Assembly: GCA_046563655.1 (NCBI GenBank)
Contig: CM102284.1
Coordinates: forward strand, 2,728,001 to 2,792,000
DNA from: Yuukianura sp. NJ FZ-2021
Taxonomy: Eukaryota
Reading direction: 5' to 3'
DNA: 64,000 nt
Below, in pieces: positions 20,076-40,473 of this stretch. The notes below the pieces were generated by a model. That model searched no databases and was not told the DNA's origin. It saw nothing but the letters and a program-made list of their open reading frames with translations. The position numbers and the translations under genes were made by a program. How positions within the stretch are numbered: position 1 is the first letter of the stretch; each line of letters begins with the position of its first letter.

Positions 20076-23000
20076 GACTTGCATAAAAATATTGCACACT
20101 GCACACCAAAATCAAAGATCCGACAAGTGAAAGTTCTCAACGCATGACTGTCACATCAACCCTTAAACACAAACAGTACACTCATAAACTTATGCTGCAA
20201 ATCTTAATTCTTAACGACGTACCTCAAATTAGTTTGAGTTAATTTTTAAGATTACTATAGCAAATTTGAAAATAAATTTTTAACTCATCCCTTTACTTTT
20301 TCCTACGTAGACAGGTTGAAAGTCTATGGTGATTTGAAACTCGACTGAAGATCTTTTCGTGGCGGCGGTGGGGGTGCCTTTATGTAGGCACATTTTGGAC
20401 TTGGACAATGGTAAATTTTTATTCCACACGTAGCACAAATCCCCTTCTGGCATACCGTGCATCTTGATCTGGTGGTTTTTCTGATTCCTTTCGGGCAAGA
20501 TGCGCAAGTTGTGAAAAGTTGCTGCACGAGATTCGGTTTCTCAGTTTCAAGGGCGTTTGCTATTCGACTTTCCAGGGTTTCTTCTTCAGTTCTACCGTAG
20601 CCAACTTTCTCAAGGACCCTGTCAAGATACGTAGTTGTTGAATACATCCTTTGGATTCTAGTTGAAATTCGGGGTTCCATCAGTCCTTCTGAAAGCGTCC
20701 TCAAGAACTTTTTGCGACTAGTGCGGTGAAAGTCATTAGTACTTTTGTGCAGCTTGTGGACGACGTATGCGTTGAGAGCAGCTATGTCCAGGAGCGCTTG
20801 GAAGATTTTTACTGGCCACCTAAATATTATTAATCTTCTAATCAGTTGCTATAGGATGGATCAAATTAAAGCATAGAAATTGAAATAGGAAACTCTACCT
20901 TGCAGTTGTCCTCTGACAAGAATACGTAGCAATCATTTGATCTGCGGTGTCGATGCCTGCTTTGGTCATGTTGTAGTCAAGAATCATTTTGGGTTTAAAT
21001 GGACGCAGTGAATCTATTTCAGCGGCATGGTGCTGCGTCGATAGCAGTAGCACTGCTCGATTCTTTTTTGGAACGTAGGAAACCTTCGAATGACAATAAT
21101 TCATTTTTAAAAAAATTTTTCTTACTGTGTTGTGGGATAATGTTACGTTAAAAGTAAGTTTTTACCATTGTAAAATCCCCTTGAAATGCAAACACAGAAG
21201 ACAAAAGTTCCCGTCCTTTGGGATTGACGAACTGCGGAATGACGTCCATACGCTTGTGGTTGAGCGTCCCCAGCATCGACATCTTTTGCTTAATCAGTTC
21301 TTCGCCCAGGGATTTGGACGTGAAGAAATTGTCCATTGTCACTCCGCGTCCAGAACCAAAATACTTCTCAACCAATTTCAAAACAACTTTCTTCCCATGT
21401 TCCCGCTCCACTTTGTCACCAATTTTCCCTTGGTAGAGGTCAACCTTCAGGACATATCCAGTTTCAACGTCACAGACAGCCCATAGCTTCATTCCAAACC
21501 TTAAAGAAACATAATATTACTAACACATAAGACATAACAAATGGATTTAGTAACATTGACCATACTTTCCTGGCTTGGATTTCATGTAAACGCGGAATTT
21601 GGAACTCCCATAAAATCTGACCAACATTTCATCCACAATTAGGGTGTCGTAGGGACGTAAGTGTTTTTGCATGTTTTCTACAAATGGCTCAAATACTTCC
21701 GATATATAGCAGAACTTGGAACTCTCGTCTTCTTCTATTTCGTTTTCGTTGGTTGACTTTATGCGGGCTACTTTGTCATCGAACCTTAGAAAACTCTGAA
21801 TTAAAGAGAATCTATCTCTGCTCATTGTTGCAACTACAGCGGGGAGAGAATATAGCTCCTTCGATGTCCATGCCTCTTTTAAAGCTGTATTGCTGTAATA
21901 GAATTAACAAAGCAATAAATAGTATAAAAAGAATAGTTTTAAAAAAGAAACATATTGTGCCAAAGTGAATGTTAAAATTCCCAAACGTTTTTTCCCGTTT
22001 GATTTACCGTTTCTTTTCTGTGCCCAAGTACAGTAGTATTCCGATGTATGCATACATTTCATCCAATGTTATTGGCGACCACTTTATCACGACACCGGCT
22101 CGGTTCTTTTTCGGATTCGTTTCATATGCATACGTGGCAAAGGCGTTCGTGTGTTTCACAATCGTTTCGACGATGGCGGGTGGGAACATCAGTTTAAAGA
22201 TCTGCGTTGGAGTCAATGTCTTGTCCTTCGCAGCGCCTATCAACCCACCTTTCTCTCTTAAAACCTCATAAGCTCTTGTCTGTCTCTTCTGGTTGGGTTC
22301 TACGGTTGTCCAAACTGTTTTGTCTTTTCCCGTAAATGTTGCTTCCTCCTGAACGACTTTAACGAAGGTTCGTTCATTTTCTTCATGTTTAGAAGTGGGG
22401 TGAAGAGAATGCTTTGCTTTAAAAGTGTGCTTTTTGCAAAGCTCTGCGACTGAATCTGCCGATTCCTCGAATGTAGCTTTCGTCTTTTCAATCTTTGAAT
22501 CGGATTCTGGATTTTCAGTGTCACTGTCACTTGATTTGGAATCAGACATTTCGGAATCGCCTTTTTGCAGGTTCCAATCAGAACCATTATCCTTCGCTTC
22601 AACTTCCTCTTCTGATGAGTCCGAATCTAACAAGAATTTGGCATTAAGATTTTATTTTTCTTTCAAAGTGTTTGAAATTAAAGTTTACGTCGAGAAAAAT
22701 TCTGCGACGCACGTTTTGATTTTTTTAAGCTAACAGAGTTCTAAATGACGTTTTGAGTTGGGGTAATTTTTTTGTGAATTATAGTGTGACGTTTTTTTTT
22801 TCAAAGAAATAAGTAACTTTTGATGAATTTCAATTTTTTAAGCGAAAGGACATGAAGGACATGTACACTCACCAATTGCCTTCTGTCGTTTCGAAATAGT
22901 ACCAGGAGCATTACTTGTTTTACGACGTGAATTAAATTTGGCGACTGCGGAAATTGACGAATTTCTGTTTTTCAGTATCGGTTTTACACTGCACGCAACT

Positions 23001-24738
23001 TTCTTCTTTATCGGAAAAGATACGGAAGCTTTTCTTTCTTCTAGATTTTTTTGTCGAGGAGATGTTGCACTCAGGATTATGTCGTTCCTAGACTTTTTGC
23101 TGAAAAGAAAATTGACATTACAATTCCTGTTGCAAAGCAAAGCAAATCTCGACTTTATACTAAAATACTTAAAGATTCTGCAACTCGCAGGACAGTTAAA
23201 AAAGGAGAAAATCTTGCAGCTTATAAAAAATCTAATAATAATAGTAATAATAATAATCTCAAATAAATCTAATTTAAATCTAAAGGTAAGAAATTTTTCA
23301 GTTTCTGGAAAGCTTGCCTACTATAAATATAAGTTAAGAATTAGTCCATGTTAGTATATCAGTATAGCTTTTTTCAATTGAAAATTATCATTATTTCACA
23401 AAATTTCAGAAAATAGCTTTTACCTCGGAGACCCGTAGTCACTGTCATCACTGATGTTTGAATCATGACGAACAGGAATCAGTTTAAAGTCTTCATCATC
23501 ACAAGGCATTACTGGAATAATTGCACATGCCCCTTCTGGCTCAAGCAATGGTGGCATTTCATCACCTTCATCACTGGCAAACTCAACTTTACATGTGAAT
23601 TGTACTAAATTTTCCGTAGCCATGCCTAAATCCATGGTATCGGTTGATGCATCAGTCATTATGGCAGGGAAGTCAATTACTTCGACTTTCAAAGATGGCT
23701 TTTTGTCATTAATCGAAAAAACGTTCTTCTCAAAATGAAATTGAACCATCGATGGCAAAGACTCCCCAATGACAGGATAATCATTCTGATCCATCTCCAT
23801 AATTTTCTGCTGAAGTAATTCCTTATTCATGTACTCTAGAATAACAATTTTCAAAGTTATTTTTCAAAATTTTCCATATTTTGATTGGACGAGATGCGTT
23901 TGACCTTTACCCACCTTCCAACACTTGTTTTCGAAAATTGCTTCTGAGGTCATCGTACTGACTGGAACCTTTGTTAGGCGTCTTCTTGTTCACTTTGCTT
24001 CCATAAGTTTCTAAGCACTCCGCGACAGACAACTCAAGTTTTTTCAGCTTCTCTCTAATTTCAGTTTCAATTTGAAACAATTTCTCCCGGAGGATGATGA
24101 CTTCTGTGATGGCTTTGAGGCAGGATGGACAAAATGGTAGAGTTCCATCATCCAGTTTAAGACATTCCATTGACCCCCATTCAACTCTAAGTAGTTGACA
24201 AATGACCTGAAAAATGTTGGATCTCGTAGCAAAGTTGTTGTTTAAATTTTGTAATTCCAGAACAACGGATGTGTAGTCCTCAAGTGCTCGTATTTTTGGA
24301 CAAGTGAAGCACAATTGAATACACGGTACAAAATTTTGTTGAACTCCGTTCGGAGAATGGTAGGTAAAAGTTTGACCTCTTTTTTGAAACGCTGATGCCA
24401 TTATAATAATTTTTATTTTTGAAATGTTTTTATAACTAAATACCTAATAAAATTACTAAATCTTCTGAACTTGGCTTTACTCTCATCTGCTGCGAAAGTT
24501 TCATGTGAAACGGTACTTGCTATACTTTGGCCTTGTCCTTGGAGTGGCCCGTACTTTTCATCTCTTCTGCAATGATACTATATGCATTCGGCTCCGTTCG
24601 TATTTTATTTTGATGGGTAAAGTTTGACTCTATAGTTTGACTGAAACGTACTCATCCCTCTCCCTTAATACTACGAATGGTTCAAAACAAACACAAATTC
24701 TGGCTTCGTCTCAACTAACGACAAAACCGAAAAGAGAA
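20076..24738. repeat. Tandem segmental duplication, unit B
   Basis: Paralogous to 14610-19418 over exons and flanks; introns more diverged. Confidence 0.9.
20324..24401 (-). CDS. ZAD-like zinc domain fused to piggyBac-derived transposase (PGBD-like), copy B
   Basis: Same 8-exon structure and intron phases as copy A; IVDEMLV, TMDNFFTS, KAGIDTADQ and Cys-rich tail CASC...CTVC...CATC...HCPSPKC; no stops seen. Confidence 0.88.
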
Positions 24739-24744
24739 AATAAA

Positions 24745-25024
24745 CCTGCTGGAGATATGTATGCGAGGCTGATGAATGTTCCAACGCTTTCAACGGAAGC
24801 TGATTATGAAATCTGATTTGTCGATTACGCAGTCAAGACGTAATATTCACTTTCGTCTAGGAGCTGCTTTTCCGCACGGGGAAATTTGGACGTTCAAAGG
24901 AATCGAATTTGATCGAGCAAAAATGATTTTCAAACGAATTCAGATCATGATCAATTCTCGAATTGCTAAATTGAACACAATTTTTAAAGAATTTTCCAAT
25001 GCCAAAGAAAACAAAGTTTTCTAA
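24745..25024 (+). pseudogene. Possible degraded third copy of the papain-like domain
   Basis: KLIMKSDLSITQSRRNIHFR ~ DLIGFRCDLGPSQNPNSVHVK and FDRAKMIFKRIQ ~ SVQAAKIFQRIE of the 25961 gene; other motifs would need frameshifts. Confidence 0.3.
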
Positions 25025-25960
25025 AACAAAAAAAAATCAAAAGTTTTAACGCTCAAAAATAATCCTTTTATTTCAGTTTTCATAGTTTCAGCTATAAGCC
25101 GTTCGTTCGGCTTTGTAACACTTTTAAACGGGTTTCCAATTGCATAGTTTTCCAAACGATGTAATCAAAAGTGAGTCACGTCTCACGTGACCATTAAAAG
25201 TATTAAAAGTCAAAATAATCTATATTACTATTGTTATGCTATACAATTTGTAATATTTATAAGTGTATGCATATTGTTTTTCGCTTGTCCAATTTAGATT
25301 AACTTACTTTCAAGCGCTAAACACTAAATGAATAGCAAAACTGTAATATCAATATGATAAGTGGAATAGTATGTAAGCAAGGTACGGTTATTTGAGATTT
25401 TATTGAAACTTTAATTGACTCCATTCTTAAATTTTTAAAACCGTGTTTCAGTACATTTAGCAGGACTGGAGTTCTCTTAGCTCTTATTAGTCCAAGGAAA
25501 TGATGCTTTGTGGCAATCTTCAGCTGTGAACTTTGACAAACCTATCATGCAGACACCTCTGAAACATAACGTCAACAAAGCTGCTAAGATTAAAAGCTGA
25601 TGTTGACATCATTGAATTTGAAATCTTGTCGTGGATGTGGAATTGTGGCTTGGCTTCGATATTTGATGTCTCCTGCCTAAACTCATCACTATCATACATG
25701 ACATGTCAAAGGTGTTGCGTAATTTACTTGTCCAGACACAGAAAAATGACTCATTTTTCAAGATCTTTCCCCATTCGCTGAATTAAAGACGATAACTCCC
25801 GCATCACTCCAGTTACTCACACTACAAACACGGATAACAGTCTATTATTGACTCTGTTCGTTAAAAATGATGCAAAGACAAACTAAGATAACCTAACTAA
25901 CTAACCTAACAAAACACTTATTAGTCCTCTGATTTGTCAACTGAAGAACGAAGTAGCAAT

Positions 25961-27421
25961 ATGGGCAAACTACTGTCCAAACTTATTCCAGTTACTCCTT
26001 GCGACAAAACAACGAAAACTTTAGCAGAAATTTTCGAAGAAGCTGGCAAAATACAGGATTGGCTTGTGACTGTCGTTTGCGAAGAAAAACGCGCAGCAGG
26101 CTTTGGACACGCCTTTTTACTTTTCAAACCGTCGGGTAATTCGCAATATTTTGCTCAACGACAATTGAATTATATGCGTCTTCTATTATTCGTAAATTTT
26201 ATGTAGTTTAAATTCAAATTCCCAAAAAATTTTAATATTTCTAAAAAGAGCAATCACCTATTTGGTTTCAGCTAACGTATTGGTGATTCATTTGCCTAAC
26301 GTAATGTAATATAATAGTATGTTCCAATACAACGTAACATGTAGTATCCAAAGACTATAGTCTTGGATGAAATGCAGCTTTTCTACTTTACTATGAATCA
26401 TGAATCAAATTGCAATAATTTTGAAATGTGACAATTCAAAACTATATTGAACCTGAAATCTCCTAGTGTGAAGTGCCTCTTGTCGCTTGAATTGTGTGAT
26501 AGGTCAGTGTGTCAATAATACTTGACGATAAGGATATCTGGGTGTTCTAATTTTGTCCGCTCACCGTATCTCTTTTTTACAGATTATTTCTCTGAGTGTT
26601 TCAAAATTTCAAATTATGAAAACATAGTTTTGCGTCGAATTGTCTCGATGTCTTCTCAGCTTTCTCGCATAAAAATACACAACGTCAATTTGGCAACTTG
26701 CTTAAGGTGTCGTTTTTAAGAAAATGATATTGTGTATTTTTTTTGCCATCAGCTCATAAATACATGGGGCACCATGAAATTAGCGGGGGTGAGAGGAAAG
26801 ACGCCATTAGTTCAAAATCTAATTGGTCAAAGAACTTAAAGGGTTAAAAAAAAACATTAGGTTCAATGTGTATGTAGGTTAGGTATTTGAGCTAATTTTT
26901 CGAACCAGTTTAGTTTGAACCAATGTTATGGAACCGCGATTTCCTAATTTTTCATTTTGATGTCCACAGGCGAAGGCGAACTCCCCCGTGATCTGATTGG
27001 CTTTCGCTGTGACCTTGGCCCTTCTCAAAATCCAAATTCAGTCCACGTAAAGAAGCTGGGAATCACTTCGGCAGAAATTACATTGGAAAAAGTAGATTTG
27101 AGCGAATACAAAAATCCGCGTTGCCTTAAACCATATCCACTTACATCTGTTCAAGCCGCTAAAATATTCCAAAGGATTGAATCTGACATTCGGAAGCAAA
27201 GTTCGGGGACACCAATTTTGTACAATCCAGCCGGATTTCACGAGTCCTTTGAAAGCTCTTTTGGAAAACTTGAGCATCAAAATTGCCTGTCGTATTGCAT
27301 GGATGTGCTGAGGGAGTTGGACATTAAAGTTGGAAACAAAAGAGACTTGATTAAGTTGCCGAGAAGAACGATTCCACGTGTGCCAATGGAAACGCAAATT
27401 ACAATTACTTCAGACTCGTAA
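25961..27421 (+). CDS. 208-aa permuted papain-like (NlpC/P60, PPPDE/LRAT-type) protein with predicted N-myristoylation
   Basis: Exons 25961-26135 and 26970-27421 (phase-1 GT-AG); starts MGKLLSK; His motif FGHAFLL precedes Cys motif YN...NCLSY. Confidence 0.65.
26806..26924. mobile_element. Small MITE-like inverted repeat in intron
   Basis: attagttcaaaatctaattggtc vs gaaccagtttagtttgaaccaat are imperfect inverse complements; central taggttagg. Confidence 0.4.
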
Positions 27422-27580
27422 GATGGATAAAAGCTTATGTAAATTGTAGTTTAACTCAAAATTAAATAAGGTAGTAAAAATGTATTAAAATGAGCATAGA
27501 AAAAGTAAACTTATAAAATTAAAACAACTCAATTTATAAATTTTTACGAAATTGTTATATTTTTGTCAGGTAAAGTCAAG

Positions 27581-30500
27581 ATGGACTCCCAGTACTTGGA
27601 CGAAGATTGGCAGACGCTCGCTTCTAACTTTAAAGATTACTATACGCAATATTTTCTTCAAACTTTACCACTGTTCCAAAAACAAAATATTTTCATCGAG
27701 CAAAATGGTTTGGCGGCAAATTCAAACACAAGCGTCCCACTTTTATCGGCTTTGGCTCAACAACTCTCCAGCCCCGAAGATAGCATGAAGTACTTTGTGG
27801 TGATGGCAGATTCTGGAATTGGTAAAACAACATTGGCACTTCAACTTACTTTTAAACTTTGGGAAATGTATGAGTTGAGTGCTGAACATGAACACTACAT
27901 ACCCGTATACATCTACATAACATCCACTACTAGTGTCGTGGAATTGAATACAATCTTAAAGGCGTACCTAACGTATCCCAGAGTCATTCTAATACTTGAC
28001 TGTTACGAACAACGTTTAAATGAGGTCAGAGATTTCGTAGAGGCAGATTTAATTTTTTTGCACGAAAACATCAAATTTGTTGTAATGTGCAGAACCGTAC
28101 CACACTTGTTCTTTGGAAACCTTGTCACACAATTTCAATCGCAATTGTGCATTTTCCGACTTCAAAAATTTACCACTGATCAAATGTTGCAGTACGCTGA
28201 CAAATTTGACCGTGTTGACAGTGATACTGAGCATGTACATTTGCAAAATGAAGGAGCGGTTGGGAGTAGCGCGAAACTGGAATTGGCGTCGGCACCATGT
28301 GCTAAAAAGTGGCTGCAGGAATTGCTCATTTTGGTACCTGCGTTGAAGGAATTGGCAAAAATTCCACTTTTTCTGTCCATTCTCTTTCAAATTTCTCCCA
28401 GGCTTTTAGAAAAATTTAAAAAGTCAGGTGAATTAAGTGAAACAGCCTTATGTTTATCAAAGGCAGAAATTTTTGATTACTTTGTTGAGTATTGGTTTGA
28501 TTTTCAAATTGAGCGGAACCTACTGAACTCACGGGATCAAGATTCTAACATTCAGCTACTCCACAACGAAAATCGTTTAAAACGTTATATGTTTGCGTAC
28601 ACGCAGAATTTGGCTGAAACACTGGTTGACTCTGAGAGTGGCATTTTGTATGATGATCCTATTTCAGACACTGATTGCATTTCCTCTGAGTTGGCAGAAC
28701 CTTACTGTGACCGTGACCTATTAAATCACTATAAAACACATTTTCTCAGTCAATCGCAATATATTTCAGACGAATTGGCAAATCTTTTACAATTCCTTCG
28801 AAATTGTTCGTTAGTTGTACCAGAGTCGAATGGGCAAAGCTATCGCTTTTTGCACAGGTCCTTTGCTGAGTATTTTATTACGAGAAAAATATTTGTGGGG
28901 CTTAAAAGTCGTTTTGAATTTGGATCACGTGGTTTGACTGTATCAACAAACGGTGAACAAAATTTACTCGACACAAGGTCACCTAAGTGCTTTGAAGTTG
29001 GTTTTCTACAACTATTGGCAGATCGGGCAGTTGTGAATACTGATTTTGCAGACGTCCTGTTTGCAATTATCGAGTCTTCCCGAGAGAATCTGACTCTTAC
29101 AAATTTAGCAGCCAATTCCATCACGATTCTGAATTTGGCTGGAGCGAGTTTTGAAGGAAAGAACTTTATAGATGTTCAAATTCCAAACGCAATTCTGATT
29201 GGAGCTAAACTTGCAAATGTCAATTTCCAAAAAGCAAATCTGGGAAATGTCGATTTTTCTCAAGCGTGGCTGTCTGGCGCTAATTTTGAAGGAAGCAATT
29301 TAAATGGTGCCACATTTGGCCAAATAGAGATTTCCACTGGTGCGATAAACACAGGTCTTGCCATTTGGAAAGACTGTAGGCAACCTGCAGAACCTGTAAA
29401 TATTTTAGTCGGATGTCGTAACGGTTCTATTTACTTTTACAGACAGAAGTCGGGAGAGTCCAAATTCGAAATTGCGAGGGAACTCCGTCACTCTAAAAGA
29501 AAAATAGGCTTTATAGATATCCATGTTTCTGGAAATTTGTTATTAAGCTGTATGTCAGGCATGGAGTTAAAATTTTGGAATTTGGTTTCCGGAAAAATGC
29601 TTTTTAAAATGTCGATGGATGTTGAAATGGCTTCGCTAGACAGTCTGGAAATTCAGGAAAAGATAAAGCAACGTTTCGAATCTTCAGTTTTTGAGTTAAC
29701 TGCAGACAAAGTCGGAAAATTTCTGGCTATGTTGACATTTTTCCACGCACACAAAATTTTATTGTATTCTTTGGAACAAGTTTTGCTGAAAGAGAAACCG
29801 AAGTTATTCGCATGCCTTAGTACTGACGTTCCAGTGCTAAGGGTTATGATTAATAGTCAAGGAACATATATAGCATTGAGTACTTTACAAGCCTTGGAAC
29901 TTCGTGACATCACCAATCCGCATCACCGACTTCTTGTCCTGTGCCAACCTGAAAAAGACTTTTCAATTATACGGTTCAGTCCAGATGGAAATTGGTTGAG
30001 CTATACACAAACGAAGTACGTTAAAATTTGGAATTTACAAAATGTACATGCGCTTAGCAAAGCAGAAACCAATGTAACAGAGACGTTGAAGATAGGAATA
30101 CGCAACAGGGATACAGTTATTGATGCTAGTTTTACCTCCGAGAATCAAAATTTTATTGTCTGCACTAGTGACTCAATGTTAAGCTCGGCTAACCAAGGCT
30201 GTTACCTTAACGTTTACTCTTTGTCAAGCGGACAGTTGAGACAAGTCATTAACACTGGTGTTGAAATCAGATCCTTACAACCCTTCAACGGATTAGTCGC
30301 CACCATTTCACAGGATTTCCGATCCGCTCACGAAAGCTTCAAACCAAAACTGTTACAAATTTGGTATATTTCTGATTGGGCAAAAGAAGCTGTGGATATC
30401 TCAGACACTGTGAATGACCGTCCGTTCTTTCATGTGGCCATTTCACCTGCCATAGATTGGTTAGCTACTGCGCATGTCAGAAGGAATGCTGATGGTGCAG

Positions 30501-32254
30501 AGAGCATGTACGTGTATTTGTGGAATTTGGTTACTGGACGTTATATATCCATGATAGATGTGGGTGATGTTGGAAAATTAGTGTACATGGGAGTTTTGCA
30601 TAATGGAAGCATATTGGTACTCGGTAACCGCGGAGAAATCAAAGGCGGCAAACCTTATCCGCATGAAAATTTAAAAATTTTGTCTGTCGTCAATTCAGTT
30701 GACAAGACAAGTGAATCAAGCGAGTACAAATTAAATGTGGAGTTCAGTTGTAGGTTAGCTGTACGTGAGGAAGAAACTGATCCATATCGTAAACACATAA
30801 AGTTTGGTACTGACTACAACTTTTCAGTGATGTATTCGGCAGAACTGGATAACTTTGGAACTAAATTGGCAGTAGCCGATTTTCATGATGTCAAACTCAC
30901 CGTGTACGGCGTTGATTCAATGTTCAAAGATTCAACAACTTACAGTTGGACACCACCAGCTAATCAACCACAGTTCAAGTGTGATGAATATATGAATATT
31001 GGTGACATTTGTTTTCATCCCCAATCTAGTTCCTTATTGGTTACCACGAATCGCAACCTGGTGTGTTGGAACTTTCATGATCATACCGTAGTTTACTGGA
31101 TTCCAGGTTTCAGCCCAAATTTTGATCTAGTTGATACATCCGTAGGGTCTCGGTTGGTTGTTGGAGACTCTGCGGTATACACAGCTACGGCAGAACAGAT
31201 TAAAGTGTATCATCAATCCAAAGATGAACTAACTTATGTGTCTAAGATTACCGTCTCGAATATGTTTGAATTCAATCCTGGAATTGTACAATTAGGTTTT
31301 GCAGCCGAATCTAAAATGTTATTTGCAGCGCTGTCCGTAGACAATGAAATACTCGCTTGGAAGGAAGTAAAGGGCTTCTTGGATCCGGTTCTGCTGAAAC
31401 CGCCGTTAAAACTTTGGTCCAAAATTTGGAACATGCATATTTTTTGTAATAATGATTCCAAGCACATTTCAATTGTGCTTACGGATCTGCACGATAAGTT
31501 GTCACTGGTTAAGTTAAACACATACACCATGACTTGGACATTAGCCTGGTCAAATTCTCCTAGTTTTCGACTTTTTGTGCAAAATGCTATGATAAATGAA
31601 ATTGTTTCACCTACTCCCGCTACAGTAGAATTACTAGCAAAGAAAGGTGCTCAAGGAGTTCCCGCCTCCAAACTCCAAACTTACTTACGTTCCACCACTT
31701 TTAAGTTTGGGTTGCCGGGAACTGCATTTTCTGGAGTAGAGTACTCGATTTTTTGTGAATTTTTAAATAAACAGTCGGTAAAAGGCAGTGGATCGGAGTC
31801 TCTTGAGTTATCTGAAAACGTTTGGACAGTTTCTGCAATTAGTACTCATACTCGGAGATTAGACCCATTTGAGCACGTATCCTTGCTCATAGAAGGCATT
31901 AAGGATACCCGCAGATTCGTTTTTAGAGCAGAATTGATCGCGGAACTTGATTCAAAGAGAGTGGCAATTCGTGTACGGCCGTTTAGAAATCGAAATGATT
32001 TGGAATATTTCGTCGCCCGTGTAACAAAATGTAGGTCTTGGTCAGTTTCTAAAGAAAGAGGAAACAAACTGATCATGTCAATTAGGGATAGTCAACTGAC
32101 TCCAATGGAGTATAACGTACGAGACAAGAACTGCGTTGTCTGGTCACTAGAAACACTTAAGGAATGTGGAGTAGAAGTGCATAGGTCAAAATATAACTCA
32201 TTGTTTGTTCTGCCTAAAAACATTTTCGAAAACGCCTATACTAAGCGTACATAA
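27581..32254 (+). CDS. NLR-like STAND protein: NACHT NTPase, pentapeptide repeats, WD40-like propellers, C-terminal permuted papain-like domain
   Basis: Uninterrupted ORF (1557 aa from ATG 27581). ADSGIGKTT (Walker A), VILILDCYEQ (Walker B), KFVVMCR, ELAKIPLFL, YRFLHRSFAEYF; AANSITIL followed by pentapeptides (ANLGN, AWLSG, ANFEG, SNLNG); WD-like FSPDGNWL..VKIWNL, VYLWNLVTG; tail FEHVSLL...YNVRDKNCVVW. Confidence 0.88.
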   Translation: MDSQYLDEDWQTLASNFKDYYTQYFLQTLPLFQKQNIFIEQNGLAANSNTSVPLLSALAQQLSSPEDSMKYFVVMADSGIGKTTLALQLTFKLWEMYELSAEHEHYIPVYIYITSTTSVVELNTILKAYLTYPRVILILDCYEQRLNEVRDFVEADLIFLHENIKFVVMCRTVPHLFFGNLVTQFQSQLCIFRLQKFTTDQMLQYADKFDRVDSDTEHVHLQNEGAVGSSAKLELASAPCAKKWLQELLILVPALKELAKIPLFLSILFQISPRLLEKFKKSGELSETALCLSKAEIFDYFVEYWFDFQIERNLLNSRDQDSNIQLLHNENRLKRYMFAYTQNLAETLVDSESGILYDDPISDTDCISSELAEPYCDRDLLNHYKTHFLSQSQYISDELANLLQFLRNCSLVVPESNGQSYRFLHRSFAEYFITRKIFVGLKSRFEFGSRGLTVSTNGEQNLLDTRSPKCFEVGFLQLLADRAVVNTDFADVLFAIIESSRENLTLTNLAANSITILNLAGASFEGKNFIDVQIPNAILIGAKLANVNFQKANLGNVDFSQAWLSGANFEGSNLNGATFGQIEISTGAINTGLAIWKDCRQPAEPVNILVGCRNGSIYFYRQKSGESKFEIARELRHSKRKIGFIDIHVSGNLLLSCMSGMELKFWNLVSGKMLFKMSMDVEMASLDSLEIQEKIKQRFESSVFELTADKVGKFLAMLTFFHAHKILLYSLEQVLLKEKPKLFACLSTDVPVLRVMINSQGTYIALSTLQALELRDITNPHHRLLVLCQPEKDFSIIRFSPDGNWLSYTQTKYVKIWNLQNVHALSKAETNVTETLKIGIRNRDTVIDASFTSENQNFIVCTSDSMLSSANQGCYLNVYSLSSGQLRQVINTGVEIRSLQPFNGLVATISQDFRSAHESFKPKLLQIWYISDWAKEAVDISDTVNDRPFFHVAISPAIDWLATAHVRRNADGAESMYVYLWNLVTGRYISMIDVGDVGKLVYMGVLHNGSILVLGNRGEIKGGKPYPHENLKILSVVNSVDKTSESSEYKLNVEFSCRLAVREEETDPYRKHIKFGTDYNFSVMYSAELDNFGTKLAVADFHDVKLTVYGVDSMFKDSTTYSWTPPANQPQFKCDEYMNIGDICFHPQSSSLLVTTNRNLVCWNFHDHTVVYWIPGFSPNFDLVDTSVGSRLVVGDSAVYTATAEQIKVYHQSKDELTYVSKITVSNMFEFNPGIVQLGFAAESKMLFAALSVDNEILAWKEVKGFLDPVLLKPPLKLWSKIWNMHIFCNNDSKHISIVLTDLHDKLSLVKLNTYTMTWTLAWSNSPSFRLFVQNAMINEIVSPTPATVELLAKKGAQGVPASKLQTYLRSTTFKFGLPGTAFSGVEYSIFCEFLNKQSVKGSGSESLELSENVWTVSAISTHTRRLDPFEHVSLLIEGIKDTRRFVFRAELIAELDSKRVAIRVRPFRNRNDLEYFVARVTKCRSWSVSKERGNKLIMSIRDSQLTPMEYNVRDKNCVVWSLETLKECGVEVHRSKYNSLFVLPKNIFENAYTKRT

Positions 32255-32315
32255 GTATGACATGGAAATAATTAACTAATGCACTAGCTGGTAAAACTAG
32301 GTGGGTTGCCACACC

Positions 32316-32415
32316 TATAACCATGAATATTATTATAACCATGAATAATATTTGAATGAACGTTACATGATTATTGATTACATGAATGAATGTGTTTATA
32401 ACCATGAATATTATT
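32316..32415. repeat. Short repeats of tataaccatgaata
   Basis: Three copies at ~32316, ~32334 and ~32397. Confidence 0.6.
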
Positions 32416-32816
32416 GGTGTTATAATGTTGCAATTTCTTGAGTTTACATATAAACCTCTAGTAAAATTAAAAAAAATTATAATGGCAATAATGATGACAG
32501 TGTATGATTCAAGAAAAATGTTTCATCTTATGTAATAATACGTTAGGAATTTATATACATCAAATACAATTAAATAAAAAAAGTTACAAGTTCGCAACAA
32601 ACTTTAAATATCTAGCCGTAGATTGTGTGGACTAAGGCGTTCGTATTTCTTCAAAATTCGAAAGAAATATAGTCTACAAATGTTTCGCGGGGATTCTGTA
32701 CTTCAATGTTAAAATCATTGTTAACGCTTAATTTAATCCAGTTACTTTCTCAAATCGTTTAGCATTGAACTGGTTTTATTGAAGTTAAGTTAACATGAAA
32801 TTATTCTGATTATAAC

Positions 32817-33086
32817 CTATTCTAAAAGCGTCAAAAACTCTTCAAAGCTGAGTGATCTGCTTCCATCTGCGTCTGCGCGGTTAAATTTGGCTTCCACTTG
32901 TTCTTGCATCCCAGGAGTCGATGGAATTCCACCGTGCGCGTTCCAGACTTCGCCCAGTGTGACTTGACCTTTTGGCGCTTCCGTGTCCATCTTTTCGAAT
33001 ACTTCCTCTGCAATTTCCTGATCAATCGCGGACAACTCTCCAGCGACTATTCCCACAAGTACAAGCACTAAAACAACCAACCGCAT
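32817..33086 (-). CDS. Small secreted EF-hand calcium-binding protein (89 aa)
   Basis: Signal peptide MRLVVLVLVLVGIVAG; canonical EF loop DADGSRSLSFEEF plus a degenerate loop DTEAPKGQVTLGE; TATA-like tataaa upstream (plus-strand tttata ~33138). Confidence 0.8.
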   Translation of the reverse strand: MRLVVLVLVLVGIVAGELSAIDQEIAEEVFEKMDTEAPKGQVTLGEVWNAHGGIPSTPGMQEQVEAKFNRADADGSRSLSFEEFLTLLE

Positions 33087-33922
33087 TTCCTTAGTTTAGG
33101 TCAAACGCTTCAGTATTACTGGCAGAAGTAACAAAATTTTATAGACGTTTCCAACTTTGATCATTGATACTCGAGTAAAGTGAATCAAATTGAGTACAAT
33201 TGGTAATTGACTCGAAACCAAAGTCCATACATAAAATCACATGTACGTAGTCTTAATTCTCAGGTTCCTTTTAATAAGCCACAAACCTTCTTTACCAACC
33301 AGTAAATTGTACACCCACACGAAGTCCGCTTTGGCGTCACTTGAAGAATCCTTGTTGCATACGCTGCGCGTGCGTTCATGTAATGAAATGGAAATACCAA
33401 GTCTAGTTATGTTATATACATAACCCAAATCCCAAATTCGTGATTAATTTTTTTTAGTTGCTAAAATTCTTTCTGATTCTAGGCGTTGAATTCAAGTAGT
33501 GATTGGAATTTGGTTCCGAATATTGAATTCTTCAAGTTTGAATATTGAATTATTTAGTTTATTCTACGAATATATAGTGCTTAAGACTATTCCACTAAGG
33601 CAATTGAAACAATTAATCAACGTATTGGCTAAAACAAAAAGCTGTGTAAACTATTCTGATTGAACGAGTAAACGTAATTTTTAAATGGGAAATTTTTGCA
33701 GTAATTTTAATTGCAGTAAACCAGCGCAGCGTCAACATCTCTCGTCATTCTACAAATATATCAATAGATCATCTTATGCTCATTTAATTTTAATTTCGAG
33801 TCAGCTTGAAACCAATAAAATCACAATGCCAGAATTTAATTCCATCATCAATTGCATATCCAGATGTAGTAGCCAGGAGATTTGGGGAAATCTGAATCTG
33901 ATTGCTATTGCTTACGAAAGAG

Positions 33923-36195
33923 TTAGTGTACAGGAATCAATTTGACAATAAAAGGACGCGGTTTTATGGTCAGCGACGGCGAGCCTGGTTCCAATGATGG
34001 CTCTCTGCCTTCGACGATATCCAGATAATATTTGTTAAGGATGCCCGTTGTCATCATAAACAGTGTTATCATGGACATGTTTTCACCAGGACAAACCCTT
34101 GCTCCTTAAATTCGATTTTAACATTGTAAATCGCAATATAACTGACTGACAAATTTTACTCTCATTCTTACCAATGCCAAACTGATCGACGCGTTCCGAC
34201 TTGGAATTGTCGAAATTTCCGTCCGGCAGAAGAAGGCGTTCCGGCCGAAAGTTTTCTGGATCACCCCAATAGGATTTGTCGTGGAGAATTGCCCAAGCAT
34301 TAGGAAATAGCAGAGCACCTTTCGGTATTTTGTAACCAGCGCATTCAAAGTCTTGTATTGCTAAGCGTGGGGTACGAACGGGAATGTATGGAGCATGACG
34401 CATCACTTCCAGAAGCACGGCTTTGGTATAAGGCATTCTAAGCACATTTCATGTTTTTTATAGTGTTAAGAAATAAAAGTGTATTCAATTGTTAAATTGG
34501 AACACTCACGCTGCCATCATCGTCGACGGAAATGGAATGAATCTACTGTGCACATGTTGCTCCATTTCTTTTCGTACTTTTTTCTGAACATCAGGAAACA
34601 TCGTCAAATACAGAACAATCCATTGGATAGCCGTAGCAATAGTATCGGATCCGGCAATAAACAAATCCATCAGCGTCAGTACAAACTGGTCCTCTATAAA
34701 TGAGATAAATTAATATAAAGTATAATATGCTAATAAGTATTTCTGCCTATTTAATTTATAAACTCCGTTCGCCCTAAATGTTCACTCTGTCCATTCTCTC
34801 TGGGAAAAGGAGGCGGAATATTTATAGCGAACGGTGTATAATATGTCATATAATCTAAGCTAAGCTAATACAACCTAAGAGACAATTAGAAAACCCATAC
34901 CATTTAGAACTACGTTCGGTTGCCCTTTGTTTTTCTCAATGTCGTCCAAGTAGGCTTCTATAAAGCTCTCAGGTTCCACACGTCTAGCCCTTCTTTGTTT
35001 AGCATCTTCCACCAACTCCTGTTTATAATTTATCGTTGGTTTTAAAATTTAGAGTTAGAAAAAGTTCCATTTGAAAAAATTGAAACTAAAAGTGGAAATT
35101 TTTCTAACCAACATAAACTCCTTCATGTCTCGATGTATTTCGTAATGATTTCTGTATCCACTCCACTCTGGGAAAATTTTTAGAAAAGGAAAAACAGCTA
35201 GATAATTTTTCGCTCCTGCTGCTTCAAATATTTGTTGAGTGCACTGTAAATGGCGCTTCATTTTGGAACAGTGTGGATCAAATCGGTAACCACCAACAGA
35301 CGCCCAAAGGATGTTGATACTCAAAGCGGAAAGTCGAGTAATGTCTACGTTCCAAATACCGTCAGAAGGAGTAATTTCGTGATCAACTTCATTCAAAAGG
35401 TCATTGACCTCGGTTTGAATTGCTTCATCCATTGTCATTTTCCTACCAAATTCAAATTGACGCAGGAGTCTTACTGTGTATCGTTTTTGTTCTCTCCACG
35501 TATCGCCGTAGCCCCAAACAATTCCTGCGGAGTTTACATTTAAAAAAAAATTCTAAACGGTGTACCACAGTTGACATTTGGTGTGGAGAAGCTGGTCTTA
35601 TTTTTAACTTTAACTTAATGTTAGCTTGAAATATATACGATAAGTTGATTACTGCTTATTAGTGGTAAGGTGCATTAATTGATTGCGTTAGGTTAAATTC
35701 GATGTCGATGTTACTTACCCAGATTTTTGAAGTTGTTTCTTTGTTCCATAAATTCAAATCTGCCTCTGTCCATTGCTTCAGGACGCCGTAGTATTTCTCG
35801 CATAATTTCAAAGTTGGATAAAACCACTTTAAAATATTCAAAACATTTTTTATTGAAATTCGTTTTTTTTCAAAATTCTTTTTTTGAGTATGGTACCTGC
35901 GTAGTGTACTCCATACCCAATTGACATAATTCCACCATATTTCCTTGCGAGACCAGTCAATTGTAAATGCGGATGCTCGGGATGTTCCCTGAGCATTTGT
36001 GGAAGACTTCCTAAAATTGGCCATCGAAACGGCCCTGAATACGGCCAAAAAAGATTAAATTGTTAAATTGCTAAACAAGTAATTAACTAACCTTATTTAA
36101 TTCTCACCTGGTGGTAATTTCCGGTTATCGCTAAAACGTTTGAGCATCCATAAAAATAGAACTGTTAATGTAAACACAAAAATAGCCCCGACCAT
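33923..36195 (-). CDS. Cytochrome P450, CYP2 clan (copy B, inverted paralog of 8279-10484)
   Basis: Same intron positions and near-identical exons; I-helix DLFIAGSDTI; EVMR; FRPERL; FGIG|ARVCPG. Confidence 0.93.
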
Positions 36196-36873
36196 TTTGT
36201 TACTGCCTTTGTCAAACACTTCTTAACAACTTTGAGCTACTACTGATATAACACGTTGAAGCTGCCTTTTGTGAAAAACAAAACCACAACCTTGGTAACC
36301 TTGCACAAGAGAAGAGGTTTCAAACTAAATCTTTCAACATGCGAGTAAAAGTACGAGAAAATGTTCCAGGAACGTTCATGACCTTGACAATATCTTGTCT
36401 CGAAAGTCCATATGCCTTCACCGTAATCAAAAACTCAACATTATAAGTTTACGCAATTTCATGAGCTGTTATTTTTTCTTGGAGTGCTAAAAACTTAATT
36501 CAAAGCCGTGTACAATTTCTAATTAAGCAATAGAAAACCGCATAAGTCAAATCTATGTTGTCACGTATACAGTTTTTCTGCTCTTCTGTCAAATGCATAA
36601 AGAAGCAATGAACCATTAAGCGAGGTGTGGAAACGTATGTTATAGTGGACAATAAATAGCTCTCAGTTGATGAGGTTGTGCTAAATATTCAGCGCTATTG
36701 AAAACCACTATGTTTTTGTTGTTCAGTTTAGCTTTTGTTTTTTTTCTACCGGAAAACTCGAAATAAGAATTTGGTTTTAGTAATGGATTCTTGGAAAGAG
36801 TATGGCCGCAAACATTTAATTTATTCACAGGTTCAAAATTTTAAAATCAGGTTTGTTAAAAAGGTTTGGAGTA

Positions 36874-39174
36874 TCATATTTCAGTCTTCTTTATAAGGAG
36901 AAGGTGCCACCAGGATCAACTTCTGAATGAATTGAGTTACATCACCTGAAAGCAGTTTTTCGAATATTTTCAAAATCGACCTTCCACAAATTATTATTTA
37001 AAATCCTGCAAAATGTTGTCGTACGCATGAATCCGAGTTGATGTTTTTTGTAAACGAAAGGGTAGTAAATTGCAATTCCTATTCCGCATAGTACTAAAGG
37101 GTAAACGTGTTCAAAACCAGGAGAATCTACGAGCGGTGTTACAACCAGAAACAACGACATGGCGAGGGCAATAAGAGGAAACAGTATCGGAGTCTGTACA
37201 GAGGTCAAAGGTCAAAATTGTCACAATATTGCTGAGCATCTGATAAATTTTCTATGAATCTAACCTTGAAGGGTCTAACGGCGTCCCGTTGTGTGTGACG
37301 CAGGATGAAAAACGAAATCATTGTGAGAGCATAAAAAATCCAGGCAGAGATTGTTGTAGAATCCAGAAGTTTGCCGATGTTATTGTGGTAGATGAACAGG
37401 ATTCCAAGAATGGTCTGAAAATGTCGACAGGTTAAACTTTTAGAATTTAGGAATTCAGAGGTAAATACAGTATGTAGTATCAACAAAATTACCTACATTA
37501 AGCGAAATGGCTACCGCAGGAGTGAGTCGTTGTATATGGACATACGACAAGACGTCTACTAGATGTCCATCGCGAGCAGCCACGTACGAAATTCTATTTA
37601 AAAAAATATAAAGGAAATTATGTATTGATTTTTTTTTAAATTCAGATAAAATCTTGCCTTCCTGCGGTGAACATGCTTCCATGTGCCGTTCCGTAAACTG
37701 TTAATGCCACCAAAACTGGAATTACAAAACTGTAACTTCCAAGCATTCGATCTCCTAGAAACTACCAAAACAGTGTAAAGTTTTGATCTCTTTTTTGGAA
37801 TCCTGCACAAAATGTGATATGTACTAAATACTTTGATGAACTTACGGTCCCGACCGGTTCGTTACTCAATAAATCTTCGGGAATAAGAACCGTAAAATAG
37901 GCTATGTTCATAAATGAAAACAGAAAAGTTACAAGAGGCATTCCAATAAAAATTGCCAGTGGAAGATTCCTGTTTGGGTTGATGATCTCTTCCGTCAAGT
38001 AGTTTAAACTGTGCCAACCTAAAAAAAGTAAATAACTAATTAAACTTATGTTTTCCTTCAAATGTTAAGCAAAATCAAACACTACCATCGTATGACCAAA
38101 GTCCGCAGTACAGCGATAACGCTATTCCAGACGCAGAAATATCTCCTGATTGGTCAAATCCGTCTGTAGGAAGTGACCCAGTTTGGCCAATACTTAAATT
38201 GTAAATTCCAATTGCAATTATGAGACCACAAGCGATCAGTTTGGCTATCGTGAATACAATTTGAATTCGAGCAGCCATCTTTACGCTTAAAATGTTCGTG
38301 ACGCCGATTAGGACTGAAAAATCCAAAACAAAAATGAAATGTTTCTGAAAAATTCACTTTCAGGTTTGTCCTCACCCGCACAAACAACAGCAATCAGCTT
38401 TTTGGTCAAGTCGTAGTCGTCGGATTCTGATTGTGTCCATACGGGATCAATGCCATTGAGCTTGACGATTGGCAGAATCGTGTACTGAGCAAAACTTAAA
38501 CTTAGAATTGCAAGATTCGCAGGCTTAATGAGTATCACAGTCATGAAGGAAAAGAGGAATGCTGGAATTTCACCCCAGAATGGATGAAGCGGCTTGAACG
38601 CTGCTTGCAAATAGGCATGCTCGCCGCCACTTCGGGGCACAACAGTTCCAAGTTCACAGTATGTCACTGCAGCTAAAATTAATGAACATTTTACAAATAA
38701 TTTAACTAAAGGTAATTTGAAATTCAAGGATTTCTAAAGTTCGTAGGAGTTTTACCTGCAGTACTCAGCAATCCAGATGCAATCCAAATTGCTATACTCA
38801 AATACACAGAACTTCCAGCTCGCTCATACACTTTCATTGGAGTAATGAAAATTCCGCTACCTGTAACAAATCACGTTCGAATTATTAAGTTTTTCTAGAG
38901 TTTACATTAAAAAAAAAAGATTGTTGTTACCTATGATTGTTCCTAAAATCATTGCAACGGCCCCAACAAGCCCAATTTCCCGCTTCATGTGCACCGTGCC
39001 ATCGCTTTTCTGTTCCTTAAGCACACGCGCTTTAGTTTCACTTCCCTCATGGTCTGGAAACGTTCCAAAGGTCACTACTGAAGCTGGGTTCAATTTCGCC
39101 GTTTGTCTGGACAGTCGAGTCCAAGAAATTGACAATGGAATTTTCCCATTGGACGAAAATCCTCCATTCTTCAT
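36874..39174 (-). CDS. SLC7 L-type amino acid transporter light chain (b(0,+)AT/y+LAT-like)
   Basis: MKREIGLVGAVAMILGTIIG|SGIFITP, YCELGTVVPRSGGEHAYL, GLWSYDG|WHSLNYLTEEIINPNRNLPLAI, YVAARDGHL; the start may extend upstream. Confidence 0.92.
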
Positions 39175-40473
39175 GTCCAGCAGAATTAAAAGTGGAACTG
39201 CTTCTTGACTTTTCTTGATTGCAAAACGTTGCCCTGAAAAGGCAAGAGATGAAGTAACACTTATTTGAAGTTTGAAGTGAGCAATTAGCGATGTGACACC
39301 GAGTTTAAACTAGGTATCTAAAATGTGGTTAGGACTTAATTTGGTAAAGATAAAGTCGTCAATACTCCTGTCCAAATGTCAGTTCCAGAAGTCAAGAACC
39401 TTTCTGATGTTTTTCTTCAGATAGTACTTATACCTTTCAGTTTCCTTGTCACGGAAAACTTCTAATTGTAAGCCTACCATCCAAGATGAACAAAAGCATT
39501 TTGAAAAAATGAAAAGGTTTTGTTCTTATCATGTAAAAATTTGGAAATTATCTGTTAACATTCATTCGCTTGATGCTCTACTTTTCGTTTAAAATGACGT
39601 AGGTAAAAAGGCGTTAGTAAACACGGAGTGCTAAAGTGCGAAACTTGTGAGTTTTTAAGTGAATCAGAGAATTGTCCATCAACTAACTTTCAAAAAACGT
39701 TTATAAAAATTTTCTGCCTTCGACTTTACTAAAAGTAACAACTATAATTGCGAGCATGCTAAAGTTATTTTAGGCTTTTCATTGGAAACTTTTTCTATAA
39801 GCTCAATGCTCAAACTTGACTGACCCACCTAATGAAAAAAAAATTCTACACTTCTTCTTAACATTTTAACCTAAAAACAAGAACGTTTCGCCAGATTTCG
39901 TCAAAGCTAATAATGCTTTGCTTTAAAGTTCTTCTGTAAACAACAATGAAATCGAGCAGAAGAGTTTTCGAATATCAATTTAAAGAAAAAAGTTTATTAT
40001 TAGTACGCGAACCATATACTACCATTAATGAAATTGTTTTTTGTCATTTGTTGCCGTAAGCGTAGCCTCTAGCCTGCCTCGCTGCAAACTTGAGTGATTA
40101 GACGAGTGATATTAAAACTAATTACGGTTTGAAGCTGAGTACTTCTTTGGATGATTAATTCAGTTCTTAATTTAAATCCAATGAAAACTCTAATAAAGCA
40201 GTGGGAGAGGTTCCCAGAAAGTCACGATTCTGAAACGCTAAATTGGAATTGGGAATCTTATCACAGATCACGATCACCAAATGAAAATAAGCACTTAAGC
40301 ACAGTCCATTTCACTTTATTTGTGGTACTGTTGTCAAAGTGCTTTTCGATGTCAACTAACATAAATTGGGCGGAAATTAATTAATCACTTGTTAGTCGAA
40401 AGAGGAGTCATGATTTGGAAAAGCATTTCGCCAGTTTCCGGAGGATCCATTTCTCCTGGAAGTCCATTTGTTC

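Follow-up and report, generated by a model that had tools for sequence, protein, structure and literature searches.

A two-gene cassette of probable bacterial origin, encoding an NLR-like protein and a small Cys-His partner, in the genome of Yuukianura sp. NJ FZ-2021

The DNA analysed here, called the window in the following, is a stretch of 64,000 nucleotides (nt) from Yuukianura sp. NJ FZ-2021 (assembly GCA_046563655.1, contig CM102284.1, positions 2,728,001 to 2,792,000 of the forward strand; all positions below are counted from its first letter). It contains two neighbouring open reading frames (ORFs), ORF A and ORF B, which together are referred to as the cassette and of which the larger, ORF B, encodes an NLR-like protein. 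An earlier note, made from the letters of the window alone, had proposed that ORF B was acquired from a soil microbe. From the genes found in the window the host was taken to be a metazoan with short introns. Exons of adhesion-type G protein-coupled receptors (GPCRs) of the 7tm_2 family, an HRM exon, and trypsin lie on the same sequence, there are animal genes on both sides of the cassette, and the best solved relatives of the 7tm_2 exons are adhesion GPCRs such as latrophilin.

ORF B is the longest of the 54 ORFs of at least 120 amino acids (aa) found from stop to stop in the window, reaching 1581 aa when counted in this way, and the next-longest have 741, 418, 322, and 300 aa. The majority range from 120 to 220 aa, which is consistent with short exons, and the introns in the genes neighbouring the cassette measure 64 to 207 nt, so that the earlier description of the surrounding genes as split was borne out. 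For a content of 39% guanine plus cytosine (GC) the expected frequency of stops is about 0.065 per codon, and 1557 open codons would then occur by chance with a probability of about 1e-45 by our own arithmetic. The domain order which had been noticed at the outset, NACHT, AANxITIL motif, pentapeptide repeats, and WD40, could be located in ORF B in full (Table 1). Within the NACHT module the sensor arginine 171 and the WHD histidine 425 are retained, and the residues found to be invariant in an alignment of 22 rows include glycine 79, glycine 81, lysine 82, aspartate 140, phenylalanine 423, and histidine 425. A structural model predicted for residues 1 to 600 (pLDDT 76.7, pTM 0.78) yielded NOD2, NLRC4, NLRP3, and NAIP5 as top Foldseek matches with E values from 3.6e-9 to 1e-5, and Avs4 and Apaf-1 followed at ranks 34 and 48. 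The NACHT module as modelled has the NBD-HD1-WHD-HD2 fold of solved NLRs. The pentapeptide region matched pentapeptide proteins of the PDB with an E value of 9e-10. In the following region weak matches to the Pfam WD40/beta-propeller families and to WDR5 were found for residues 607 to 855, and a repeat (FWNLVSG and LWNLVTG) recurs with a spacing of 315 aa; this part of the protein probably forms two propellers.

The last 223 or so residues of ORF B are conserved among its closest relatives, where histidine 1432, asparagine 1517, and cysteine 1518 proved to be invariant. No Pfam family was found for this C-terminal domain or for four bacterial copies of it, LRAT, NLPC_P60, and PPPDE being among the families compared. 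A model calculated from a 16-row alignment (pLDDT 71.8, pTM 0.68) was compared with solved structures by VIA-align, and the first seven ranks were all taken by members of the permuted NlpC/P60/papain-like superfamily: TseH (Z 10.2, root mean square deviation 3.5 over 128 aa), CLN5 (7.6), DeSI-1 (7.4), Aichivirus 2A (6.4), PLAAT4 (5.9), YiiX (5.9), and a Bacillus cysteine peptidase (5.7). The predicted domain thus has a papain-like permuted fold, and the order of a histidine followed by an 'NC' motif presumably corresponds to the signature known as H-box/NC in PLAAT and the 2A proteins of picornaviruses. Judged by its sequence, the 208 aa protein of ORF A is a standalone copy of the same domain, with histidine 50 and cysteine 164 in the H-box and NC motif. 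A profile built from 14 bacterial rows only scored ORF A at 39.0 bits (E 7e-14), the best of 500 shuffled sequences reaching 2.1 bits. ORF A begins with MGKLLS, which we take, from the N-termini of neuronal calcium sensors, to be a possible N-myristoylation site.

Three runs of one sample (X1, X2, and X3) cover the stretch, and their contigs were placed on positions 21000 to 40000. X3 holds 14 of the 15 listed joints at which sequence is skipped; these have GT..AG or CT..AC ends (once CT..GC), skip 64 to 834 nt, and are distributed over several genes, and the segments skipped in X3 are present in X1 and X2 contigs. A derivation of X3 from cDNA would explain this most simply, as a genomic alternative would need intron-less DNA copies of many genes simultaneously. 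A single X3 contig of 935 nt joins positions 25947-26134, 26969-27417, and 27570-27867, whereby two introns are removed and 287 nt of ORF B are included. The shorter side of its second joint (27417 to 27570) measures 255 nt, and the stop codon TAA of ORF A follows immediately after this joint. The first intron is retained in the X1 DNA contigs 25955-26632 and 26603-26983, the second in the DNA contigs 26954-27867 of X1 and 26990-27867 of X2. Two further X3 contigs (28139-29541 and 29605-30606) are collinear with ORF B. Thus ORF A and ORF B are co-transcribed on one RNA with two spliceosomal introns, and the 4.7-kb gene without introns of the earlier note holds for the coding sequence and fails for the transcript, in which two introns (834 and 152 nt) precede the ORF B start codon. 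This start codon has an A at position -3 and a G at +4, and in its frame it is preceded by a stop at a distance of 26 codons, without an ATG between the two. As the contigs do not reveal where RNAs start, an additional transcript with ORF B only is possible. The profile alignment of ORF A continues across the joint between exons 1 and 2, which places the first intron inside the acquired coding sequence. DNA contigs of X1 and X2 together span both introns and continue for 620 nt beyond the ORF B stop, so that the borders of the cassette are tiled. A joint in X2 leading from 25046 to 35841 and skipping 10,794 nt was considered as a deletion allele and rejected, since its shorter side measures 22 nt, the surroundings are rich in A and T, and no GATC is present.

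Table 1. Features of the ORF A-ORF B locus, with positions counted in the window; X3 is the run interpreted as cDNA-derived
Feature	Position	Strand	Remarks
Exon 1	25947-26134	+	ORF A ATG at 25961 (MGKLLS...); aa 1-58; H-box His50; from X3 contig and translation of joined exons
Intron 1	26135-26968	+	834 nt, GT..AG; between ORF A aa 58 and 59; X3 joint 26134 to 26969
Exon 2	26969-27417	+	ORF A aa 59-208; NC-motif Cys164 at 27284-27286
Intron 2	27418-27569	+	152 nt, GT..AG; accounts for most of the 159 nt that separate the two ORFs
mRNA link	27570-27580	+	11 nt: last base of a Ser codon, ORF A stop TAA (27571-27573), 7-nt spacer to ORF B ATG
ORF B	27581-32254	+	4,674 nt, 1557 aa plus stop; ATG to stop, coding sequence without intron
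NACHT-type STAND NTPase module	27743-29080	+	aa ~55-500
P-loop ADSGIGKT	27806-27829	+	aa 76-83; agrees with Walker A [AG]xxxxGK[ST]
Walker B LILDCYEQ	27989-28012	+	Asp140 retained
FLHRS	28847-28861	+	Motif position within the NACHT module
AANSITIL helix, family signature	29108-29131	+	aa 510-517; AANAITIL in most relatives
Pentapeptide repeats	29138-29332	+	aa 520-584; Pfam PF00805 E 4.3e-12, PF13599 E 8e-10
Degenerate WD40-like beta-propeller region	29378-31570	+	aa ~600-1330; aligns with WD40 part of homologues
Permuted NlpC/P60-like Cys-His domain, ORF B C-terminus	31583-32251	+	aa 1335-1557 (223 aa)
Conserved residues of the C-terminal domain	31871-31897; 32126-32143	+	His1432 in the first, Asn1517-Cys1518 in the second segment
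ATTAAA, possible polyadenylation signal	32466-32471	+	212 nt past the ORF B stop; putative, from a pattern match

Relatives of ORF B are numerous and distant. A search with its residues 1 to 1200 against 1.84 billion representative proteins gave 7936 matches at E <= 1e-3, of which 21 reached E <= 1e-30; the closest had an E value of 3.9e-52 and 34% identity, nothing closer being present among these representatives, and the BLASTP identity to the top 30 was 22-30%. All parts of the architecture, the C-terminal domain among them, are conserved in the family alignment, and a profile of this domain matched 48 of the 151 proteins P0001 to P0151 (E < 1e-10). A back-translated pattern of the signature AANAITILN found 43 loci in prokaryote contigs, with one genome per species, and ORF B matched 33 of them in tblastn. 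Twenty six of the 43 are labelled as Gammaproteobacteria (three in Tatlockia, one in Coxiellaceae, eleven on the 2.28 Mb chromosome of one metagenome-assembled genome (MAG), and eleven others), and Chlamydiae, Myxococcota, Bdellovibrionales, Acidobacteriota, and Bacteroidota are represented among the other 17. Three of the related proteins could be placed on bacterial chromosomes. A gene with 100% identity to P0061 is found on a contig of 2.92 Mb, which encodes, in addition, PolA, GlmS, Fic, patatin, KdoO, WaaA, a TolC-like protein, and GyrB/ParE; P0105 and P0039 were located on a MAG chromosome of 2.45 Mb and a contig of 2.0 Mb, respectively. Look-alikes in the Atlas were clusters with NACHT, pentapeptide repeats, and WD40 from Mucoromycota, Pseudomonadota, Cyanobacteriota, and Actinomycetota.

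Other searches were less productive. A word-based protein search with ORF B had P0001 from Linnemannia as its sole match, and in a protein search with alignment A1 WD40-rich cyanobacterial proteins dominated and no member of the ORF B family was returned. Locus searches with P0008 in genome and metagenome contigs and with A2 in genome contigs were empty, while A2 in metagenome contigs gave 23 distant loci, mostly 21-28% identical. The defence-system models of PADLOC had no match in six proteins tried. Two observations on individual genomes may be recorded here. The 2.28 Mb gammaproteobacterial chromosome with its eleven loci (L010, L011, L014, L019, L022, L025, L028, L035, L037, L039, and L040) is a case of large family expansion in a small genome, and in G002 there were 23 matches to P0039, many of which are WD40 repeats.

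The arrangement of two genes was also found in bacteria. In seven of nine bacterial loci examined a standalone gene with the H-box and NC motif (H/NC gene) adjoins the NACHT gene, on the upstream side as in the window in L013, L008, L018, and L020, and downstream in L033, L044, and G006:C4; beside the NACHT genes of the two other loci, L024 and L069, no standalone H/NC gene was seen. In L020 the H/NC gene encodes a protein of 419 aa and ends 60 nt ahead of the NACHT gene. This protein is also the best BLASTP match of ORF A (E 8e-10); another bacterial partner follows at 9e-5 and the C-terminal domain of ORF B at 0.45. As ORF A is far closer to the bacterial partners than to the domain next to it, the two genes appear to have been transferred together and not to have arisen by local duplication. 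Paralogues of ORF A or ORF B were not found elsewhere in the window. Exon 2 of ORF A, used as a single-protein query, had no match in five bacterial genomes, four of which were matched by profile A3.

Trees were calculated from the NACHT region with FastTree (140 rows) and IQ-TREE (78 rows). In both, ORF B was found inside a clade of 29 rows with support of 100 and 99, respectively, which includes L020, P0061, and P0105 and of which nearly all members have the C-terminal domain. All labelled rows in this clade and in its sister groups are bacterial, and the labelled relatives are uncultured Gammaproteobacteria. Linnemannia P0001 occurred in a different clade of 47 rows (13 of them sampled in the smaller tree), which is nested among bacterial rows beside a sequence from a Chlamydiae MAG (L032/P0140). 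Forcing ORF B into the Linnemannia clade made the tree worse by 51.6 log-likelihood units (p 0.0139 in the approximately unbiased (AU) test, for a group defined after the tree had been seen). The G027 genes, once included in the tree, were placed away from ORF B. Ciach et al. (bioRxiv 10.1101/2021.12.02.471044 / PMC11291939) reported that Mortierellomycota had acquired NACHT-PPR-WD40 receptors from Mycoavidus. In the present trees, which contained no Mycoavidus sequence, the position of the Linnemannia clade agrees with the published derivation of the fungal receptors from bacteria, but the closest bacterium with a label is not Mycoavidus. The suggested link of ORF B to Mortierellaceae and Mycoavidus therefore stands for the architecture and not for ORF B itself, which lies outside the Linnemannia clade.

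Another finding concerned the ends of the bacterial proteins, which were examined in the P proteins and in the loci L013, L008, L033, L018, L024, and L076. CaaX-like ends of the form C-x-x-x are present in 17 of the 48 homologues with the C-terminal domain as compared to 4 of the 103 other matches, and in 9 of 12 ORFs of the bacterial loci that contain the domain, in large and small proteins alike. Two further small genes of G027 have such ends, and neither ORF A nor ORF B has one. Prenylation is a eukaryotic reaction which is used by effectors of Legionella. It is therefore probable that the bacterial proteins exert their action within host cells, and their sequences suggest that these NLR-like proteins are prenylated by the host cell as effectors.

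With homology and a common gene order linking the locus to cassettes on gammaproteobacterial chromosomes, positions 25947 to 32254 probably represent a two-gene cassette of bacterial origin which is now resident and expressed in an animal genome. Acquisition from a microbe, as first proposed, is thus the best supported explanation: ORF B shares a clade of 29 rows with bacterial chromosomal genes, the bacterial layout has been kept, identity to any of the representative proteins searched is at most 34%, and the flanking genes are metazoan. In such an old transfer an ancestor of the host would have acquired the two genes at once, the donor being a gammaproteobacterium that lived inside its cells or in close association with it. 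Their base composition would later have drifted to that of the host; GC across the locus is flat at 0.36-0.40, and the GC content at third codon positions of ORF B (0.37) lies within the range of the host and neighbouring exons (0.31-0.51). Two introns would have been gained, one within ORF A and one in the spacer. By analogy with NLRs the propellers would bind a ligand, upon which the NACHT module would oligomerise in a nucleotide-dependent manner and bring the C-terminal Cys-His domains together. These domains, possibly together with ORF A recruited via its like domain, might then act as hydrolase or acyltransferase. The substrate is most likely a membrane lipid or a lipidated protein, in analogy to the nearest folds, which are those of TseH, CLN5, DeSI/PPPDE, picornavirus 2A(H/NC), and PLAAT.

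A number of observations weigh against a functional cassette acquired from bacteria. In the Walker B motif ORF B has D-C-Y-E-Q where the family has D-G-Y-D-E, glutamate 143 and glutamine 144 replacing aspartate and glutamate, and the hydrolysis step is possibly slower or lost in a protein of this sequence. Pfam NACHT (PF05729) did not match ORF B at E <= 0.1, where only nSTAND3 (0.014) and AAA_16 (0.07) were found for residues 55 to 122; among the 22 aligned rows 20 match NACHT, 21 the pentapeptide families, and 18 WD40, the last strongly, and ORF B is one of those missing NACHT. Foldseek gave only weak matches for the C-terminal model, the best being TseH with an E value of 0.031, and the fold match is moderate. 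The type of X3 is recorded as 'DNA?', a guess, and each of its joints is supported by a single contig. Within bacteria the family has a patchy distribution: a match to the H/NC profile was present in 7 of 41 relatives of G006, one to the N-terminus of ORF B in 2 of 63 genomes of the order of G006 (one genome unscored, strict cut-off), and in none of 203 genomes of the Tatlockia order (E <= 1e-20, three unscored). With respect to the trees, the eight rows nearest to ORF B (P0002, P0004, P0010, P0026, P0047, P0029, P0034, and P0095) are unlabelled, come from contigs of 3.6-11.7 kb, and could be eukaryotic. ORF B itself is a long branch (1.4-1.6) which was flagged as a case of 'long branches meet', and a tree of 46 rows had an unresolved base with no strongly supported set containing ORF B.

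Some of these points lend themselves to a different history, in which the family is eukaryotic in origin, the animal having received the pair from another eukaryote, be it protist, fungus, or animal, or having inherited it from a remote ancestor amid widespread losses, and intracellular bacteria having captured it as effectors. The direction of transfer could then be reversed, from eukaryote to bacterium, which is conceivable since the CaaX-like ends imply action in eukaryotic cells and effector genes of this kind are sometimes eukaryotic in origin. The enrichment of these ends in the bacterial homologues, the unlabelled state of the eight nearest relatives, the patchy occurrence in bacterial orders, and the existence of a large eukaryotic clade of Linnemannia type within the same family all agree with such a history. 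It is nevertheless clearly the less probable one, as every labelled row in the ORF B clade and its sister groups is bacterial, the Linnemannia clade is itself nested among bacterial rows and ORF B was rejected as a member of it by the AU test, the tight operon-like pair recurs in several bacterial genomes with varied copies of the small gene on either side, and the coding sequence of ORF B has no intron within an intron-rich genome. An unlikely variant of bacterial transfer is that the pair is a transcribed relic without function, or that translation is confined to ORF A, with ORF B as a long untranslated tail. ORF B sits 7 nt behind an ORF of 208 codons on the same RNA, which is a poor position for translation in most eukaryotes, and the degenerate WD40 repeats and the glutamine in place of the second acidic residue of Walker B would suit a relic; against it stand the 1557 open codons with their very small chance probability, the retention of the P-loop lysine, the Walker B aspartate 140, arginine 171, histidine 425, histidine 1432, and cysteine 1518, and the A at -3 and G at +4 of the ORF B start codon. 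Contamination or a chimeric assembly, in which animal DNA was fused with a contig from a bacterium or a fungus, would account for an intron-less ORF with microbial relatives, and X1 is perhaps the source of the assembly and hence not independent, but it can practically be set aside since two spliceosomal introns are removed in X3, one of them within acquired coding sequence, contigs of X1 and X2 tile the borders of the cassette, its composition matches the host, and no bacterial gene flanks the locus.

If acquisition from bacteria is combined with the CaaX-like ends, a more detailed scenario may be drawn, which is speculative and on the whole doubtful. Host-associated Gammaproteobacteria would deliver NLR-mimicking effectors into eukaryotic cells, and prenylation of the CaaX ends by the host would fix them and their partner enzymes to membranes. 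An animal would have captured such an operon, exchanged the CaaX ends for the myristoylation signal of ORF A, and kept dicistronic expression by means of the spacer intron, the product now serving as a membrane-directed switch for immunity or cell death.

The remaining genes identified in the window include P450s, an ABCG transporter, an amino-acid permease, BCS1, and pieces of piggyBac-type transposases, with no bacterial genes flanking the cassette; Rfam and tRNA searches gave no matches. Two copies of the piggyBac-type transposase on the minus strand (15418-17115 and 20898-22651) are separated by about 5.5 kb and are broken into ORF pieces at identical profile positions. An X3 joint with CT..AC ends (21081 to 21164) implies that at least one copy is spliced, and the copy could be a domesticated transposase. 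An inverted repeat of 45 nt (24396-24440 and 32443-32487, 73% complementary) flanks the whole cassette and is probably due to chance, a 12-nt seed being expected in 10 kb of AT-rich DNA. Two genes of the adhesion/secretin type with HRM and 7tm_2 exons (43402-45380 and 56178-56789, both on the plus strand, about 12 kb apart) are probably tandem paralogues. Between them lies a gene for an Old Yellow Enzyme (47845-49061, plus strand) with two exons, whose best solved relatives are of the fungal afvA, bacterial YqjM, chromate-reductase, and XenA types (E 3e-42 to 1e-21). Such a gene is unusual in an animal and, judged by these relatives, may be a second candidate for transfer, with a gained intron. 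A second long ORF without intron, the one of 741 aa (57998-60220, minus strand), had a weak F-box-type LRR match (E 1.3e-6), and an Atlas search gave no usable look-alike.

In a full-text literature search judged on abstracts, no report of a NACHT-PPR-WD40 transfer into an animal was found, nor one of a cassette of sensor and partner still co-transcribed after intron gain. If confirmed, the locus would provide a dated and dissectable case of an animal gaining an NLR-type module from bacteria and a natural example of how an operon can become a dicistronic gene that is spliced. A further gain would be a handle on an uncharacterised Cys-His domain which is fused to NLR-like proteins in many uncultured bacteria, often with lipidation signals of eukaryotic type.

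Several known systems are related to the cassette in one or the other respect. In dicistronic genes and operons of animals, too, a single spliced RNA carries two ORFs that are separated by very few nucleotides, whereas the cassette seems to descend from an operon of bacteria. With animal NLRs such as NOD2, NLRC4, NLRP3, and NAIP, ORF B has the modelled NBD-HD1-WHD-HD2 fold in common, and its sequence had no match to solved NLRs at E <= 1. It differs from them in having WD40 and pentapeptide repeats instead of LRRs, no CARD, PYD, or BIR, and a putative effector at the C-terminus. The antiphage STAND proteins bNACHT and Avs are likewise composed of a STAND NTPase, a repeat sensor, and a fused effector; the CaaX-like ends in the relatives of ORF B suggest eukaryotic targets and not phage. 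The permuted NlpC/P60 enzymes (TseH, CLN5, DeSI/PPPDE, picornavirus 2A(H/NC), and PLAAT/LRAT) have the histidine before the cysteine of the 'NC' motif in common with the Cys-His domain, at a sequence identity of 8-14% and with no Pfam match to their families. The NLRs of Mortierellomycota and Mycoavidus have the same order of NACHT, AANxI[ST][IV]L helix, pentapeptide repeats, and WD40, as in P0001 from Linnemannia, and are likewise a case of transfer of this architecture from a bacterium to a eukaryote. Compared to the Linnemannia clade, in which the C-terminal mark was present in 0 of 47 rows, ORF B has in addition the NlpC/P60-like domain and a partner gene, and its host is an animal. Among symbionts, a preprint on one of the Legionellales lists NACHT/NLR and WD40 effector-like proteins. 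The closest counterparts are the gammaproteobacterial cassettes (L013, L008 and L033 of Tatlockia, L018, L020, L044, and G006:C4), which share with the animal locus the full architecture and the adjacent small H/NC gene. They differ from it by an identity of only 22-30% and, in many of the bacterial copies, by CaaX-like ends, which ORF A and ORF B lack, and it is the animal copy which has introns and an ORF A beginning with MG.

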